NCBI GenBank assembly: GCA_964350985.1
Contig: CAYGLK010000001.1
Location: 91,018 to 155,017, forward strand
DNA: 64,000 bases
Reading direction: 5' to 3'
From: an uncultured Candidatus Saccharibacteria bacterium
GTDB taxonomy: Bacteria; Patescibacteriota; Minisyncoccia; Phycocordibacterales; UBA918
The translations under genes and the position numbers were made by a program. A model generated the notes under the pieces. It saw nothing but the letters and a program-made list of their open reading frames with translations, was not told the DNA's origin and ran no database searches. Shown here one piece after another: positions 1 to 43,210 of the stretch (position 1 is its first letter; each line of letters opens with the position of its first letter).

Positions 1-325
1 TTAGGTTCTGATAGCCAGCAAAAGTTCTCGCTAGTAAAACTACTCGAGCCCTCGGCTTGTCTATCTGTGCATCTTTATCATGTCTGGTTCGTGGAGCTAA
101 GTGAGCATCAATTCCGAGAATCGGTTTAATACCTTCTTTGGTACAGGCTTTATAAAAATCTATTAGTCCGTATAGAGCACCGTTGTCTGTGAGTGCCAAC
201 GAAGTCTGACCATCAGCTTTAGCGGCGTAAGCCAGCTCTTTTGGGGTTGGTAGGGCATTTAATAGGGAATAGTGAGAATGGGTATGCAGGTGAACAAAAG
301 TGTTTTTTGGAGTAGTTTCGGACAT
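1..325 (-). CDS. dnaE: DNA polymerase III alpha subunit, N-terminal PHP-domain portion (partial; gene continues beyond window start)
   Basis: Reverse-strand translation MSETTPKNTFVHLHTHSHYSLLNALPTPKELAYAAKADGQTSLALTDNGALYGLIDFYKACTKEGIKPILGIDAHLAP matches the PHP domain start of DnaE (HxHxxYSxLDG motif). Confidence 0.7.
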   Translation of the reverse strand, partial: MSETTPKNTFVHLHTHSHYSLLNALPTPKELAYAAKADGQTSLALTDNGALYGLIDFYKACTKEGIKPILGIDAHLAPRTRHDKDAQIDKPRARVVLLARTFAGYQNL

Positions 326-24846: not shown

Positions 24847-24879
24847 TTAAAAGAAGTTGCTTATTAATACTTTATTATA

Positions 24880-24919
24880 AAACTAGTTTATCTATCATCA
24901 GGGATAGATAAACTAGTTT
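24880..24919. promoter_or_regulatory. palindromic operator site a (TTATCTATC-N6-GATAGATAA family)
   Basis: AAACTAGTTTATCTATC-ATCAGG-GATAGATAAACTAGTTT, 17-bp perfect arms. Lies just 3' of the TrpR-like regulator gene. Confidence 0.6.
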
Positions 24920-24929
24920 TATTATTTTC

Positions 24930-25397
24930 TTACTTGTCCTTATTTAAAAGAATGTTGTCTGCGATACTAAAAAGTAAAAAGTGCATTGGATAACGACTTT
25001 TCAAATCAGTGAAACTTAGTGGAGACACGCGATTTCTGGAACCGCTAGATTTTTTGGACTTAGGCTTCTTTTGTTTATCTTTGACATCTCTATATGAAGG
25101 TAACTCTTTACTGATCCATTGTCTGATATTGCGAAAAGTATTAGGACTGATCTGTAATATCTCATTAACTTCATAATAAGTTGCACCAGTTAGTATCAAA
25201 CGTGCAATTACTATTCGTCTTCCAACCGCAAGACGTTCTTTTTCAGTCAAGACTTGTTGAATAAAAGAATTTACTGCAGCCTCACCTTTAAATTGACCGG
25301 CAGCAGCGGAGAGTGCGTCATTTATTAATTTATCCTCCTTAATTTGTCTCAGATTCATAAATAAAAATTTAATTAGTAACTCTCTATCTATCATCAA
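24930..25397 (-). CDS. TrpR/YerC/YecD-family DNA-binding regulator with basic C-terminal extension
   Basis: LTEKERLAVGRRIVIARLILTGATYYEVNEILQISPNTFRNIRQWI fits the YerC/YecD TrpR-like HTH. Start is ambiguous: TTG 25397, ATG 25394 or Met at 25358. The start overlaps operator site b. Confidence 0.6.
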   Translation of the reverse strand: MMIDRELLIKFLFMNLRQIKEDKLINDALSAAAGQFKGEAAVNSFIQQVLTEKERLAVGRRIVIARLILTGATYYEVNEILQISPNTFRNIRQWISKELPSYRDVKDKQKKPKSKKSSGSRNRVSPLSFTDLKSRYPMHFLLFSIADNILLNKDK

Positions 25398-25492
25398 TGA
25401 TAGATAGAGACCACACTATAAATACTATCATCAGTGATAGATAAAGAGAATCACATTGGTTTAATTTATCTATCCTCAATGATAGATAAATT
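25382..25492. promoter_or_regulatory. three tandem palindromic operator sites (b, c, d) over the regulator promoter/start
   Basis: b 25382-25409 CTCTATCTATC-ATCAAT-GATAGATAGAG; c 25421-25446 imperfect aCTATC-ATCAGT-GATAGATAA; d 25463-25492 AATTTATCTATC-CTCAAT-GATAGATAAATT. Confidence 0.6.
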
Positions 25493-25502
25493 TGATGCAG
25501 AA

Positions 25503-25958
25503 TCAATAACATATGTTTTTAAAAGACAAAACCCGGCAAGCGCAGGGCTTGTCAGGTTCTAAAGTTTGGTAAGTTGGTAGTAGATTTATCAGCCAAGTCT
25601 CTACAGTCGGTGTCCGAACTGCTTCAAATTTCTTCAGGCGCGGATTAGGAGTGTGATTGGTCCGAGAACAATGAACAAAAAAGCACCGCATACATATCCA
25701 AATTTGAACTGAAAAGTGGCGGAACTTTTGATGCGGAAGATCAATTTCCTCTTGTACCAAATCGAAATTGTACAAATGATAGAGCGAACCAGCCAAAAAA
25801 ACAGCAAACCATTGAGCAGAAAAGGGAGGAGGTAGGTCACGATTTTCTCCAAAGTGAGGGTAGGCGGGGTGGAACTTGTTTACAAGAACAATACAATACT
25901 TAGAATACAAGTCAATACTTTGGGCATAGTCTTTGTTTTCGCGTATAATGGCTGGCAT
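25503..25958 (-). CDS. hypothetical protein (151 aa)
   Basis: ORF divergent from dnaG; His/Cys-containing; no domain recognised by eye. Confidence 0.4.
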   Translation of the reverse strand: MPAIIRENKDYAQSIDLYSKYCIVLVNKFHPAYPHFGENRDLPPPFSAQWFAVFLAGSLYHLYNFDLVQEEIDLPHQKFRHFSVQIWICMRCFFVHCSRTNHTPNPRLKKFEAVRTPTVETWLINLLPTYQTLEPDKPCACRVLSFKNICY

Positions 25959-25963
25959 AAGAT

Positions 25964-27727
25964 ATGTCAGATCCGGTGCAACAAATTAAAGATCGGCTAA
26001 ACATCGTTGATGTTGTTTCAGCTTATGTAGAACTCCATAAGGCAGGCAGACACTTCAAAGGAAAGTCTCCGTTTACCAGCGAGAAGACTCCTTCTTTTTA
26101 TGTTTCTCCAGATCGTGGAATGTACTACTGTTTTTCTACTAGCCAAGGCGGAGACATGTTCACTTTTGTGGAAGCGATGGAGGGAGTTGATTTTAAAGGC
26201 GCTTTAAAAATATTGGCAGAGAAAGCTAATGTTGAGTTAGTACCAGTGTCGCCGCAAAAGAAAAGTGAACGCGATCGTCTGTATGTTGTTATGGAAGAGG
26301 CAACCAACTTTTATGTTACGCGACTTCAGAATGCTAAAGCAGCCAAAAAGTATTTGGAAGAAAGAGGTGTTAATGAAGCTAGTCTAGAGTCTTGGCGGAT
26401 TGGTTTTGCTCCTGGTCCGCCTGACGATGGTTGGAGGGAAGTGAAAGACCATCTCTTAATGAAGGGCTATACCGAAGCAGAATTATTTAAAGCCGGTTTA
26501 GTAAAAGAAAGTGGAAAAGGGAAAGATGCCTACGATGTATTTCGTAACCGGATAATGTTTCCACTCTTTGATCAAGGTGGGCGAGTAGTAGGCTTTTCTG
26601 GAAGAACACTTGAGTCAGGTCCTGAAATACCAAAATACGTAAACTCACCCGAAACTGAACTCTATAAAAAATCAGAACTACTCTATGGCTATGACCGAGC
26701 CAGAAAGGGAATTAGAAACCTCAACTTTTCACTGATTGTAGAGGGGCAGTTTGATGTCGTTATGAGCCATCAGTCGGGCTACACAAACACAGTAGCTGTT
26801 TCTGGGACTGCTTTAACGCCACTTCACGTGCAATTACTTGAACGACTATCTACAAAGGTTGTTTTGGCCCTGGATTCAGACAAGGCTGGTGTGGCTGCCG
26901 TAAAGAGAGCGGCTGACCTAATGCTTAGACGTGGTTTGGACGTTAAGGTGGCTGCTTTGCCCAAGGGGCAAGATCCAGCTGATATCGTACTTAAAGACAT
27001 CAAAGAATATAAACAAGCGATTGGAAAATCACTACATGTAATCGAGTTCTTACTTCAACACCTCAAAGAAAGAAACTTAGATGAACGCACCTTTAAGCTT
27101 CAGGCTAGAGAAGAGATTTTGCCGTACATAAATCTTTTACCAAATCATATTGATCAAGATCACTTTGAAGCTAAGCTGGCCGAAGCTTTGAACACTACCA
27201 AAGAGGCGGTTCATTATGAGGTTGAAAGATTGAATGAAAATAAAGAAAGAGCTTCAAATACCAAAGAAGTTACAAATAAACCAGTCGTAAAAAAGCCAGC
27301 AGTTGAACAACTACCACAACAAAGAATGACAGCACTCCTAGCTTACGTTGTCTCCGCTTACACTCTTTTTGATTCAGATATTTCTAGTAAGCTAAAAGCG
27401 TTGATAGAAGCTATTACTAGTAAAACTATAGAGGAGCTAGATAGTACTATAAGCCCAGGAACAAAAGCTGAAGTACTTTTTAGAGCAGAGTCATTTTTAG
27501 ATAAAAACCCTCGTAAAGTTTTTGATGACGAATTTATTCACTCCCTAAACGAATTGCGAGCTCAGACAATTAAAAACGAGATTAACCGAGCCAGGAAGCA
27601 GTTAGAAGAGGCGGAGAGTATGGGTCAAGAGGATAAGATTACAGAAGCAATTCAGTTAGTTTCCTTATTACGGCAAAAATTACAAGAAAACCCTTATACT
27701 GTTGAACTACTTGAAGAAAAGCAGTAA
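25964..27727 (+). CDS. dnaG: DNA primase with degenerate zinc-ribbon
   Basis: N-terminal zinc-binding-domain-like [13 protein letters not shown]...[22 protein letters not shown] motif [16 protein letters not shown]. Classic dnaG-rpoD operon arrangement. Confidence 0.85.
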
Positions 27728-41202: not shown

Positions 41203-43113
41203 ATGAACCTCACCCTAAAACACCCCCTAACTGCCAAACTAGGACTATCTCTCTTCCTACTCTACCTACTCTTCTCTAGAAGTGCTGTAAAACAAGCAGA
41301 AGCTGCTCCAGTAGCTACAGACTGTAGTCTACCTCTAGATACAGAAGACGGAGAGTACTTCTTATCTGGTAATGTAGTCGGAAACTGTGTTATTACTGCT
41401 AACAACGTTACTATTGATGGACTTGATCTCTATGAGATTAATGGGGATGTTTTAGCTACAAATGCATCTACTACTCAAGATTCTTTTGACATTGTTTTGC
41501 AGAATGTTCTTGTTACTGGTGATGTAAATTCAGTTGGAGCTACTAGCCTTCTGCTTAGTCGTGGTGGAGACATTGATATTACAAACTCTGAAGTACAAGG
41601 TGATATATTAGCAATGGGAGGAACAACAAGTTATTACGGCTTTGTTAATTATTCTGATGGTGGTGTAGTTACTATTACAGATTCTGAAGTAGCTAATATA
41701 AATACAAGTGGAGGGACTAATTTAAATTCCGGTTACGGTTATTATGGTGGAAGGGGAGGAAATGTCACGATTACTGATTCTGATGCAGGTAATATAACTG
41801 CAAATGGTATTGCGAGTTATTTCGGCACCCGTGGAGGAGCAATAGATGTTTCAGATTCAACAGTAGGAGACATTGAGAACGTTGGAGGTGATGGTGATGT
41901 TTCAGGTTATTACGGTGGAAAGGGAGGAGACGTCACTATTACTAATTCTGTCAGCGGGACTATTCTTAATAGAGGCGGAGACGGTGTTACCGCGGGAGAC
42001 GGTGGAGACATAACGATTACTGATGAATCATTTACTGGAGACATCAATGGTTTTGGTGGCGATAGTCTAGGTGTTGCAGATAGTTTTGGAGCTGGTGGAA
42101 GTGGAGGTGCTCTTGTAATCACTGACTCAGAAGCAGGAAATATAAACATCTCTGGAGGTTATATAGATAACGGGTATGGTCATGGTGGAGACGCTACAAT
42201 TACTCGTTCTACAGTTGGAACTGTAACTTCAAATGGAGGGGACGCTTATGATGGAGGAGGAAATGGTGGAGATATGATAATCACTGACTCTACAGTCGGC
42301 ACTGTAAGTTCTCTGGGTGGAGATGGTTATGGATCTGATGGTAATCCAGGAGTTTTAACTCTCACAGACAACGTTCCAACTATCACTGCTCCTGACACCA
42401 CCATCGCTTTTTCTGACACTTTCAGTCCACTAAGTGGAGTAACTGCCACTGACCTCAAAGACGGTAACCTCATCGCTAGTACAACCGCTTCAGGCACAGT
42501 CGCTGTAGCCGCCGGAATATATCCTATAGAATACGAAGTAACAGACTTAGGTACCTCTTTCTTATTTAACTCTGTCGCTACCAGTACTGGTCCAAACACC
42601 ACCACTCTAACCAGACTAGTCACCAGAGAGGCACAAGTATCTTCAGGCGGAGGTGGTGGAGGAAGTAGTACCTCAATTAAGCGTCGAGTGGATGTATTAA
42701 CCAGAGAAGGTGAGGTAGAAAGAGCAGAAGATATTAAAGAAGCACACCCAAGATTCTTTGATAATGTTACCGTCACTCCAACTTTAACTAGCTTCATTAA
42801 TCAAAACCGAGCAATCTTTATCACTGCTCTTGACTTAGGTATAGAACTACCTGAGTTCATCCTGACAATTATCGGCACCAAGCCAGCTTTTTCTCTACCG
42901 ACTCGCGATCTAGATCTAGATATGGAAGGACTAGATGTTGCACAACTCCAAAACTACTTGATCAACAAGGGTTACTCTATCCCAGCTGGATCAACTGGTT
43001 ACTTTGGTACTCAAACCCAATCAGCTTTAGCTCGCTTTCAAGCTGACCACAACATCACACCAGCAGCGGGGTATTATGGACCGAAGACGAGAGCATATCT
43101 CCAAGTTAACTAA
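41203..43113 (+). CDS. secreted Gly-rich repeat surface protein with C-terminal peptidoglycan-binding (PG_binding_1) domain
   Basis: Signal peptide. Then ~9 repeats of ~27-30 aa with core GG(D/N)(V/I)TITDS..G(N/D)I. An Ig/HYR-like segment (PTITAPDTTIAFSDT...YPIEYEVTDLG). A Gly6 linker. C-terminal LDVAQLQNYLINKGY...GYFGTQTQSALARFQADHNITPAAGYYGPKT. Confidence 0.7.
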   Translation: MNLTLKHPLTAKLGLSLFLLYLLFSRSAVKQAEAAPVATDCSLPLDTEDGEYFLSGNVVGNCVITANNVTIDGLDLYEINGDVLATNASTTQDSFDIVLQNVLVTGDVNSVGATSLLLSRGGDIDITNSEVQGDILAMGGTTSYYGFVNYSDGGVVTITDSEVANINTSGGTNLNSGYGYYGGRGGNVTITDSDAGNITANGIASYFGTRGGAIDVSDSTVGDIENVGGDGDVSGYYGGKGGDVTITNSVSGTILNRGGDGVTAGDGGDITITDESFTGDINGFGGDSLGVADSFGAGGSGGALVITDSEAGNINISGGYIDNGYGHGGDATITRSTVGTVTSNGGDAYDGGGNGGDMIITDSTVGTVSSLGGDGYGSDGNPGVLTLTDNVPTITAPDTTIAFSDTFSPLSGVTATDLKDGNLIASTTASGTVAVAAGIYPIEYEVTDLGTSFLFNSVATSTGPNTTTLTRLVTREAQVSSGGGGGGSSTSIKRRVDVLTREGEVERAEDIKEAHPRFFDNVTVTPTLTSFINQNRAIFITALDLGIELPEFILTIIGTKPAFSLPTRDLDLDMEGLDVAQLQNYLINKGYSIPAGSTGYFGTQTQSALARFQADHNITPAAGYYGPKTRAYLQVN

Positions 43114-43184: not shown

Positions 43185-43210
43185 TTTATCTATCATTGAG
43201 GATAGATAAA
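43185..43210. promoter_or_regulatory. palindromic operator site e, same family as the sites at 24880-25492
   Basis: TTTATCTATC-ATTGAG-GATAGATAAA, ~170 bp upstream of the glycosyltransferase gene. Confidence 0.55.

Follow-up and report, generated by a model that had tools for sequence, protein, structure and literature searches.

A TrpR-like regulator of 142 aa was found to be encoded between copies of a palindrome which are very probably its own operators, as both the position of the copies and their pairing with the protein suggest, one group of copies preceding its start codon and another lying just behind its stop codon. The same bracket, built from a palindrome whose sequence changes from lineage to lineage, was recovered in most of the loci of the protein family that could be examined, and such family-wide bracketing of a regulator gene by its own sites is an unusual arrangement. 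The kind of regulator is already known, namely an autoregulated HTH repressor; the bracket is a real feature, and a more general one than the original prediction, made from the window alone (the whole 64-kb stretch of DNA analysed here), could see. Two corrections of that prediction are needed, as the regulator is not an ortholog of YerC/HisR and the link to glycogen metabolism is not conserved; both the label YerC and a glycogen regulon are best abandoned or kept as hypotheses.

Transcription control is almost unknown in Patescibacteria (CPR); the regulator comes from an ultra-small bacterium of this kind (CPR/Paceibacteria), and Patescibacteria have few regulators and cannot be cultured alone. 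No description of a TrpR-like regulator of CPR/Patescibacteria or of gene-bracketing operators was found in the searchable literature, and the regulator family is previously undescribed. With 927 clusters, operators that are readable from each genome and a visible specificity-determining residue, this family offers an experimental system for CPR.

Palindromic sites in the window

Five palindromes of the form TATCTATC-N6-GATAGATA were located in the window, where none is expected by chance, and they are the same five sites that had been predicted. The pattern TTATCTATC-N6-GATAGATAA, with up to two mismatches, was matched at 24888, 25384, 25466 and 43186 (0.00 matches expected from 100 shuffles), and a search for the 22-bp core with up to three mismatches added the middle 5' site, one arm of which is degenerate, with no further match in the 64 kb. 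The matches are therefore non-random, with four to five observed against 0 to 0.35 expected. The sites at 43186–43209 and 25466–25489 are exact reverse complements of each other. Outside the five sites, the window contains five isolated half-sites TATCTATC, where chance predicts about 1.9 matches over its full length. The coordinates of all features are collected in Table 1.

Table 1. Regulator gene and putative operators, in coordinates of the window.
Feature	Position	Strand	Description
3' operator (putative)	24877..24922		core 24889-24910 within a 46-bp perfect palindrome
Regulator gene, 142 aa	24930..25358	-	TrpR-like HTH core, basic linker and C-terminal helices
O1, proximal 5' operator (putative)	25385..25406		TATCTATCAT-CA-ATGATAGATA; perfect palindrome reaches 25381-25410
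O2, middle 5' operator (putative)	25422..25443		ATACTATCATCAGTGATAGATA; degenerate arm, 3 mismatches to core
O3, distal 5' operator (putative)	25467..25488		TATCTATCCTCAATGATAGATA; palindrome reaches 25463-25492
Orphan operator copy (putative)	43187..43208		O3 sequence, reverse orientation

The longest open reading frame of the regulator starts at a TTG (25397), but the N-termini of orthologs and the database entry favour the ATG at 25358, which is most likely the start codon. With this start, all three 5' sites lie before the start codon, the nearest one ending 27 bp upstream; they had been predicted to extend across both the promoter and the start codon, and the start-codon part of that description does not hold. 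O1 is centred about 37 bp before the ATG and has arms of 14 bp (as read in locus L001, the sequence of which is identical to the window). A TATAGT lies 9 nt upstream of O1, and O3 is overlapped by a sigma-70-like TTGATT-16-TATCAT on the minus strand.

Behind the gene, a perfect palindrome of 40 bp had been described; it was found to be longer, reaching 46 bp, with 20-bp arms and a 6-nt loop. It starts 8 bp past the stop codon of the regulator when the extended palindrome is counted, or 20 bp past it for the core, and occupies the gap between the regulator gene and a peptidase gene that converges on it. Transcripts of either strand are predicted to fold here into a hairpin of 20 bp with a U-rich tract behind it (−24.4 kcal/mol, z −6.8), which makes the 3' site of the window terminator-like. 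The centres of O1 and of the 3' site are 496 bp apart, with candidate operators on both sides of the regulator gene.

Rfam and tRNA scans gave no match in the window or in the region 25400–26000, which leaves the palindromes and the 470-bp gap between the regulator and dnaG without a known-RNA explanation. The open reading frame at 25503–25958 (151 aa) was considered as well but is probably no real gene, since homologs were missing even from close relatives and no Pfam family passed the threshold.

The regulator and its protein family

By profile comparison and domain layout, the regulator is a new subfamily of the TrpR superfamily with a novel C-terminal module. The TrpR-like core (residues 1–97) is followed by a basic linker rich in Lys and Arg (approximately residues 98–115) and by two helices (116–141). 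The basic C-terminal extension that had been pointed out in the original prediction is real and conserved across the family: its motif reads SF..L...YPMHFLLF in the regulator of the window (116–141) and P.SF..L...YP.HFLLFNL in 125 aligned family members. The window protein scored 27 bits against Trp_repressor (PF01371), a borderline result given the 27-bit gathering cut-off of Pfam, and PF01371 is present as precomputed annotation on all five close homologs. The family profile was aligned by hhalign to E. coli TrpR with a probability of 96.5% (E value 7.9e-10), pairing SPNTFRN (71–77) of the regulator with GIATITR (78–84) of TrpR. The PDB matches of the same profile were YerC-like (3kor, 3frw and 3g1c, with E values from 5e-6 to 2e-4), and the best PDB matches in Foldseek were also these YerC/HisR structures. 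AlphaFold2, run with an 89-sequence alignment, returned a monomeric model with a pLDDT of 88 (83–90 for helices 116–141), which predicts an all-helical TrpR fold whose helices D and E make up the HTH. A catalytic domain is absent from both the Pfam results and the AlphaFold2 model, and HTH_23, a transposase-type HTH of Pfam, was matched weakly.

Membership in YerC/YecD (TIGR02531) was rejected, with 15 bits against a cut-off of 42.2 bits, and so was the E. coli-type TrpR equivalog (TIGR01321), with 14 bits against 67.25 bits. The TrpR/YerC label originally given was thus borne out by the profile comparison for the TrpR fold and failed for YerC/YecD. It had also been stated that YerC/YecD proteins have no characterised regulon, which is incorrect: YerC is HisR, the histidine repressor, with the 20-bp operator cacTTTA-N6-TAAAgtg and a described regulon (PMC9413887). 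HisR sites are found at genes of his biosynthesis and transport, and in about half of the genomes a site precedes hisR itself (PMC9413887). Like HisR (TIGR02531; 3kor, 3frw, 3g1c), the regulator is associated with a TrpR-family palindrome with an N6 centre. It differs from HisR, which has fewer than 100 aa and no C-terminal extension, in its length of 142 aa, in its half-site (TATCTATC-N6-GATAGATA), in site neighbours that are not his genes and in the presence of a putative 3' operator, none having been described for HisR.

The resemblance to E. coli TrpR (PF01371, TIGR01321) covers the LT..E...G.R and HTH motifs, with T74 and R48 as the equivalents of T81 and R54. R48 is invariant in the family; the equivalent of TrpR R84, which together with R54 sandwiches the amino-acid co-repressor, is N77, an Asn, and the Trp pocket may therefore not be conserved. 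E. coli TrpR autoregulates through an operator at its own promoter; proteins of the TrpR superfamily bind palindromes of about 20 bp as intertwined homodimers. The regulator differs from TrpR in an additional basic linker of 45 aa and the conserved helix at its C-terminus, in its operator sequence and in a second, putative operator past its own stop codon, and the few labelled members of its family are Patescibacteria.

A word-indexed protein search returned five close proteins, whereas a profile search of 1.8 billion representatives gave 927 clusters (50% identity) at E ≤ 1e-3, and 206 at E ≤ 1e-10. Scanning of metagenomes gave at least 335 regulator loci, of which 80 were kept; after dereplication, 60 loci had enough flanking sequence for comparison of the two sides of the gene. 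The family is known mainly from metagenomes, and its few taxonomically labelled members are Patescibacteria, the labelled genomes with an ortholog being Paceibacteria/Paceibacterota together with one MAG labelled Saccharibacteria.

Conservation of the bracket and its pairing with the protein

The 200 bp upstream of each regulator gene were compared with the 145 bp around and past its stop codon. In 54 of the 60 dereplicated loci, an exact word of at least 12 bp was common to both flanks (at least 14 bp in 47 of 60; median 19.5 bp). When the downstream sequence was shuffled, the median was 8 and only 0.3% reached 12, and a control comparison of the upstream flank with the gene interior never gave a shared word above 11. 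Relative to the start codon, the median position of the site centres is −29, and relative to the stop codon it is +25; extra copies of the palindrome are rare within ±4 kb of the regulator loci. Of 51 loci, 32 have a convergent gene downstream; the bracket was present with convergent (27 loci) as well as with co-directional (16 loci) downstream genes. Close relatives preserve the synteny rpoC-regulator-dnaG, and across the family the neighbourhoods vary widely (rpoC/dnaG, ychF, secA-like, pepA-like and rarA-like genes). The presence of the bracket regardless of the orientation and synteny of the neighbours marks it as a property of the regulator gene itself and, judged by this recurrence, it is an intrinsic and portable feature of that gene across the family.

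The comparison of relatives also confirmed that the putative operators are conserved, in the form of a lineage-specific palindrome at both positions in these 54 loci: the orthologs hold the layout while the palindrome sequence changes. Locus L002 carries TACCTATC-N6-GATAGGTA upstream and three copies downstream, and in L003 TATGTATCATTAATGATACATA is found 24 bp before the start codon and again directly past the stop codon, there within a 56-bp palindrome. Further lineages have ACTATCATATATGATAGT, ACTACGATATATCGTAGT and ACTTCCATATATGGAAGT, and L050 has five tandem copies in the convergent gap between the regulator and rpoC. The N6 spacer is fixed within a genome and varies between genomes (TTCAGA in AMR_MDS_0110, CTTAAG in CAYZRD01, and ATCAAT-like in the window and in JTS-AC481). 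Beyond about 26 bp, the sequence is unrelated between copies of the palindrome, which excludes a MITE-like element.

The arms of the 3' copies are longer than those of the 5' copies (median 13 against 11, Wilcoxon p = 0.016). Many palindromes exceed a footprint of TrpR size, with copy-specific arms of up to 28 bp, mostly at the 3' site, a hint of selection or of a mutational process acting on hairpins, beyond protein contacts alone. In several loci, A and T tracts flank the 3' palindrome, or the palindrome extends into the last codons. Family-wide, no enrichment of T tracts was found past the 3' sites. In L003, L004, L069, L079, L096 and L109, a separate GC-rich canonical terminator follows further on, indicating that the 3' palindrome is not the terminator in these loci. 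The palindrome mismatches available for telling RNA hairpins from DNA sites, by the asymmetry of G·U against A·C, numbered only 13.

The register of the putative operators is kept across lineages, as xxTATC-N6-GATAxx or xxTATG-N6-CATAxx. The half-sites TATC and GATA are 10 bp apart, matching the 20-bp operators of TrpR and HisR, that of TrpR being a palindrome of about 20 bp (PMC9413887). Residue 73 occupies the first position of the recognition helix and is paired by hhalign with Ala80 of TrpR, a residue that contacts DNA (PMC9413887). This residue was found to track the fourth base of the half-site (C or G): with N73, ATC-N6-GAT was present in 25 loci against 1, and with D73, ATG-N6-CAT was present in 11 loci against 0 for ATC-N6-GAT. 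The covariation is significant by Fisher's test (p = 1.4e-8, a value without phylogenetic correction) and involves several separate UPGMA clusters. Taken with the constant co-location of gene and sites, it provides strong, if indirect, support for the palindromes being read by the regulator, and these observations indicate that the regulator binds the palindromes and autoregulates.

Proposed mechanism, rival readings and other targets

It is likely that the regulator acts as a dimeric autorepressor of TrpR fold, binding its own 5' and 3' operators, with the 3' copy contributing cooperatively by way of a loop; binding, repression, the oligomeric state and looping are what we infer from the conserved sites, the predicted fold and the covariation. 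The HTH would recognise a palindrome of 22–26 bp, tT-TATCTATC-N6-GATAGATA-Aa, and would most likely repress its own gene through the three operators in the promoter and leader region. In 38–57% of the sites, −10-like hexamers (TATCAT/TATGAT) occur at fixed offsets inside the operator core, so that binding would occlude promoter elements or block early elongation, an autorepression of the classical type known from TrpR; a search for an external −10 box at a constant spacing ahead of the 5' sites found none, and enrichment of such hexamers was confined to the operator. Most likely, the copy just past the stop codon would be occupied as well. Dimers on the 5' and 3' sites, approximately 500 bp apart, might then be bridged by the conserved C-terminal helix, a candidate for this role, and the resulting gene loop would sharpen autorepression in the manner of OL-OR of lambda CI or O1-O2 of lac. 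Cooperative binding at both ends is favoured by the lack of T tracts family-wide and by the separate terminators past the 3' sites, and a DNA loop joining the two ends of the gene, as raised in the original prediction, is plausible. Whether bound by protein or folded as a hairpin, the 3' copy would in addition set a boundary to the transcription unit, a role as roadblock or insulator being a compatible second function. A more specific version, in which the YPxHFLLF helix closes the loop around the gene, the whole behaves as a minimal, self-insulating portable cassette, and specificity is reset from lineage to lineage by a simple code (at half-site position 4, C for N73 and G for D73), is put forward tentatively. 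Should the loop exist, it would amount to a compact natural solution for tight and insulated autoregulation. Orthogonal pairs of operator and protein could also be used as parts.

Operators that lie hundreds of bp apart and flank, or lie within, the regulated unit are familiar from lambda CI (OR/OL), LacI (O1/O2/O3) and GalR (OE/OI); in lambda, the gene of the repressor itself is situated between both operator clusters, and in looping repressors a separate oligomerisation element bridges the DNA-bound dimers. The arrangement described here resembles these systems in its near-identical putative operators, placed hundreds of bp apart around a unit. It differs from them in that the folds are unrelated, in the position of the second, putative operator, which directly follows the stop codon of the monocistronic regulator gene, and in the conservation of the layout across a whole family; a bridging element is present only as a candidate (helices 116–141).

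A reading of the palindromes mainly as hairpins or roadblocks that insulate the transcription unit, whether as mRNA stem-loops, terminators or blocks to read-through, and with no looping, is possible though doubtful; the protein would then bind the 5' copies only, or both copies independently. The bidirectional, terminator-like hairpin at the 3' site of the window would suit it, as would the longer 3' arms, the A/T-tract flanks or overlapped last codons of several 3' palindromes and the frequency of convergent downstream genes such as rpoC. Against it stand the lack of T-tract enrichment across the family, the separate GC-rich terminators and a bracket that is found equally with co-directional downstream genes. 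It also leaves unexplained why the 3' copy should be the operator of the same gene and why this operator covaries with the HTH. That the protein organises or segregates the chromosome, like ParB, Noc, MatP or KorA, with the linker and C-terminal helix serving for bridging or membrane attachment, is very improbable. The small number of sites per genome in mixed 5' and 3' intergenic positions, the five tandem copies of L050 and the conservation of a basic linker and a hydrophobic helix are in line with such a function, but no homology to ParB, Noc or MatP was found, the fold is that of TrpR, most non-self sites lie upstream of gene starts (see below), and the stereotyped position at −29 suits promoter control. 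Tus/TerB and RTP of B. subtilis also have few chromosomal sites, one of which overlaps their own promoter and autoregulates, and the regulator is like them in having few sites, some of them at its own gene; Ter sites are, however, asymmetric and polar where those found here are palindromic. The folds have nothing in common, and no sign of a terminus location was seen.

An origin of the palindromes as a mobile or selfish repeat (REP/MITE-like, or cassette ends), or as operators of a different regulator, is hardly credible. Identical flanking palindromes are formally terminal inverted repeats, the synteny of the cassette varies widely, HTH_23 is matched weakly, and the core CTATCA..TGATAG presumably resembles tetO. 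Nevertheless, a dispersed repeat of REP/MITE type was rejected on the few exact copies per genome (about 4–8), their unrelated flanks and the lack of a catalytic domain; in addition, the rpoC-regulator-dnaG synteny is maintained in close relatives, and the covariation ties the sites to the HTH of the regulator. The full model of the original prediction, in which the autorepressor also controls glycogen synthesis and degradation through the orphan site at 43187, is unlikely. This site, probably a bona fide binding site, repeats O3 perfectly and is placed in the intergenic region ahead of a GT4/GT5 glycogen-synthase-like (glgA-like) gene, GH57, a small ORF and GH15; its distance to the cluster, predicted as about 170 bp, was measured as 172 bp before the glgA-like ATG. 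A palindrome upstream of fba in another lineage hints in the same direction. The site is, however, located 73 bp past the stop codon of a gene for a 636-aa PG_binding-domain protein, directly after the terminator of that gene, which in relatives is missing between fba and glgA. It is also about 120 bp upstream of the conserved promoter element of glgA, TGTTATCAT; in an alignment of four genomes, the sole conserved promoter-like block of the upstream region is TGTTAT(C/T)AT, some 55 bp before the glgA ATG. The GlgA orthologs of the window are named Patescibacteria, Paceibacterota or Kaiserbacteria; the closest ones, at 79–85% identity, lack an operator-like palindrome in the 600 bp upstream, and no glgA, GH57 or GH15 was found at any of the motif-bearing loci of three related genomes, where the neighbours are heterogeneous. 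Thus, of the predicted autoregulated repressor of glycogen genes, the autoregulation gained from the conserved cognate bracket and the covariation, while control of the glycogen genes, with one site and no counterpart upstream of glgA in close relatives, is weakly supported.

The dimeric autorepressor with its own 5' and 3' operators remains the preferred reading, and its sites outside the regulator gene were followed in a genome-wide motif scan covering relatives. Of the 63 matches obtained, most were single chance matches in unrelated phyla. Related genomes contained only about 4–8 exact palindromes each, in mixed 5' and 3' intergenic positions, and not the many generic copies that a common genomic repeat would give. 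In three genomes that share the motif and have an ortholog of the regulator, 13 non-self sites adjoin unrelated genes. Eight of the 13 are within 45–280 bp upstream of gene starts, some of them just past −10-like boxes, with a GT2 glycosyltransferase, a small membrane protein with RNase J, an ABC ATPase, UvrB, PNPase, RelB-YafQ and FtsH among the neighbours of the non-self sites; other sites are found at the 3' ends of Hsp20, NUDIX, DoxX and YchF genes. A counter-hint, in favour of the glycogen link, comes from fba, a gene syntenic with the glycogen cluster: in L152, fba is preceded at 136 bp by a 34-bp palindrome (TGCAGCTACATATCATGTATGATATGTAGCTGCA) with a match to the L148 regulator's operator, and L154 has a similar candidate palindrome. 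On these matches, a carbohydrate link of the regulator is possible but unproven, and the regulon outside the self-sites looks small and lineage-variable.

Operator copies at the regulator loci of relatives

Additional copies of the operator, the palindrome with an N6 centre that brackets the TrpR-like regulator gene, were found at the regulator loci of several relatives. In Paceibacteria JTS-AC481 (L050 466-704), the regulator and rpoC are convergent, and the space from the regulator's stop codon to the 3' end of rpoC is filled by five operators in tandem. Downstream of the ortholog in L002 (2940-3050), a second copy of the promoter-proximal operator is accompanied by the gene's initial codons (…GATAGGTACAAATATGGAGGACTGG), and one more operator copy follows this duplicated segment. 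This arrangement in L002 suggests that operator copies arise via local segmental duplication.

Two loci from different family clusters (L135 and L113) carry an additional operator ~1.5 kb upstream of the regulator and ~20 bp before an Asp/Asn/Lys-tRNA-synthetase-like gene, which is encoded on the regulator's strand immediately before it. These loci therefore read operator, synthetase, operator, regulator, operator.

Operator-type sites near the aldolase gene and glycogen cluster

Operator-type palindromes were also found upstream of the fructose-bisphosphate aldolase gene in L152 and L154 (see table), where this gene adjoins the glycogen cluster; the L152 palindrome matches the operator of the L148 regulator, which comes from a sister sample. 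In the window, the gene with a PG_binding_1 domain lies between the two, and the orphan operator, the copy upstream of the glycogen cluster, is located immediately behind its terminator. This gene is a lineage-specific insertion: it is absent from L149-L154, where rpmG or small ORFs occupy the corresponding position.

Coordinates and lengths of the features (window positions unless a related locus is named)
Feature	Location	Strand	Length	Remarks
Operator-type palindrome	L152 7303-7336			136 bp upstream of fructose-bisphosphate aldolase gene
Operator-type palindrome	L154 about 8345			about 80 bp upstream of fructose-bisphosphate aldolase gene
PG_binding_1 gene	41203-43113		636 aa	C-terminal domain; between fba and glycogen cluster
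ORF	25503-25958		151 aa	within 470-bp regulator-dnaG gap; called as gene by Logan
Hairpin then UUUUGUCUUUU	25532-25556	minus		-16.3 kcal/mol, z -2.7
P0060			689 aa	several separate HTH matches to family profile
P0089			3832 aa	several separate HTH matches to family profile
P0150			1812 aa	several separate HTH matches to family profile

The regulator-dnaG gap and the wider window

Conservation of the gap between the regulator and dnaG is limited to ~44 bp adjoining dnaG. The ORF called within it has no homolog, close relatives included, and no Pfam family above threshold. The hairpin lies immediately upstream of operator O3 and has the appearance of a terminator that insulates the promoter of the regulator; a similar GC-rich hairpin occurs in L002, placed after a TTGACC-17-TATAAT promoter.

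The window (GC content of 40%) contains rpoB-rpoC and dnaG-rpoD. It lacks tRNA genes, and none of its sequence reaches the gathering score of an Rfam family. It holds 14 matches to TATCTATC versus 1.9 expected, with five lone half-sites (14697, 32114, 52746, 56684 and 63959) outside the five full sites.

Long proteins with repeated HTH units

Three very long proteins, P0060, P0089 and P0150, are tandem arrays of TrpR-like HTH units, in which the HTH portion of the family profile matches at 6-17 separate places.
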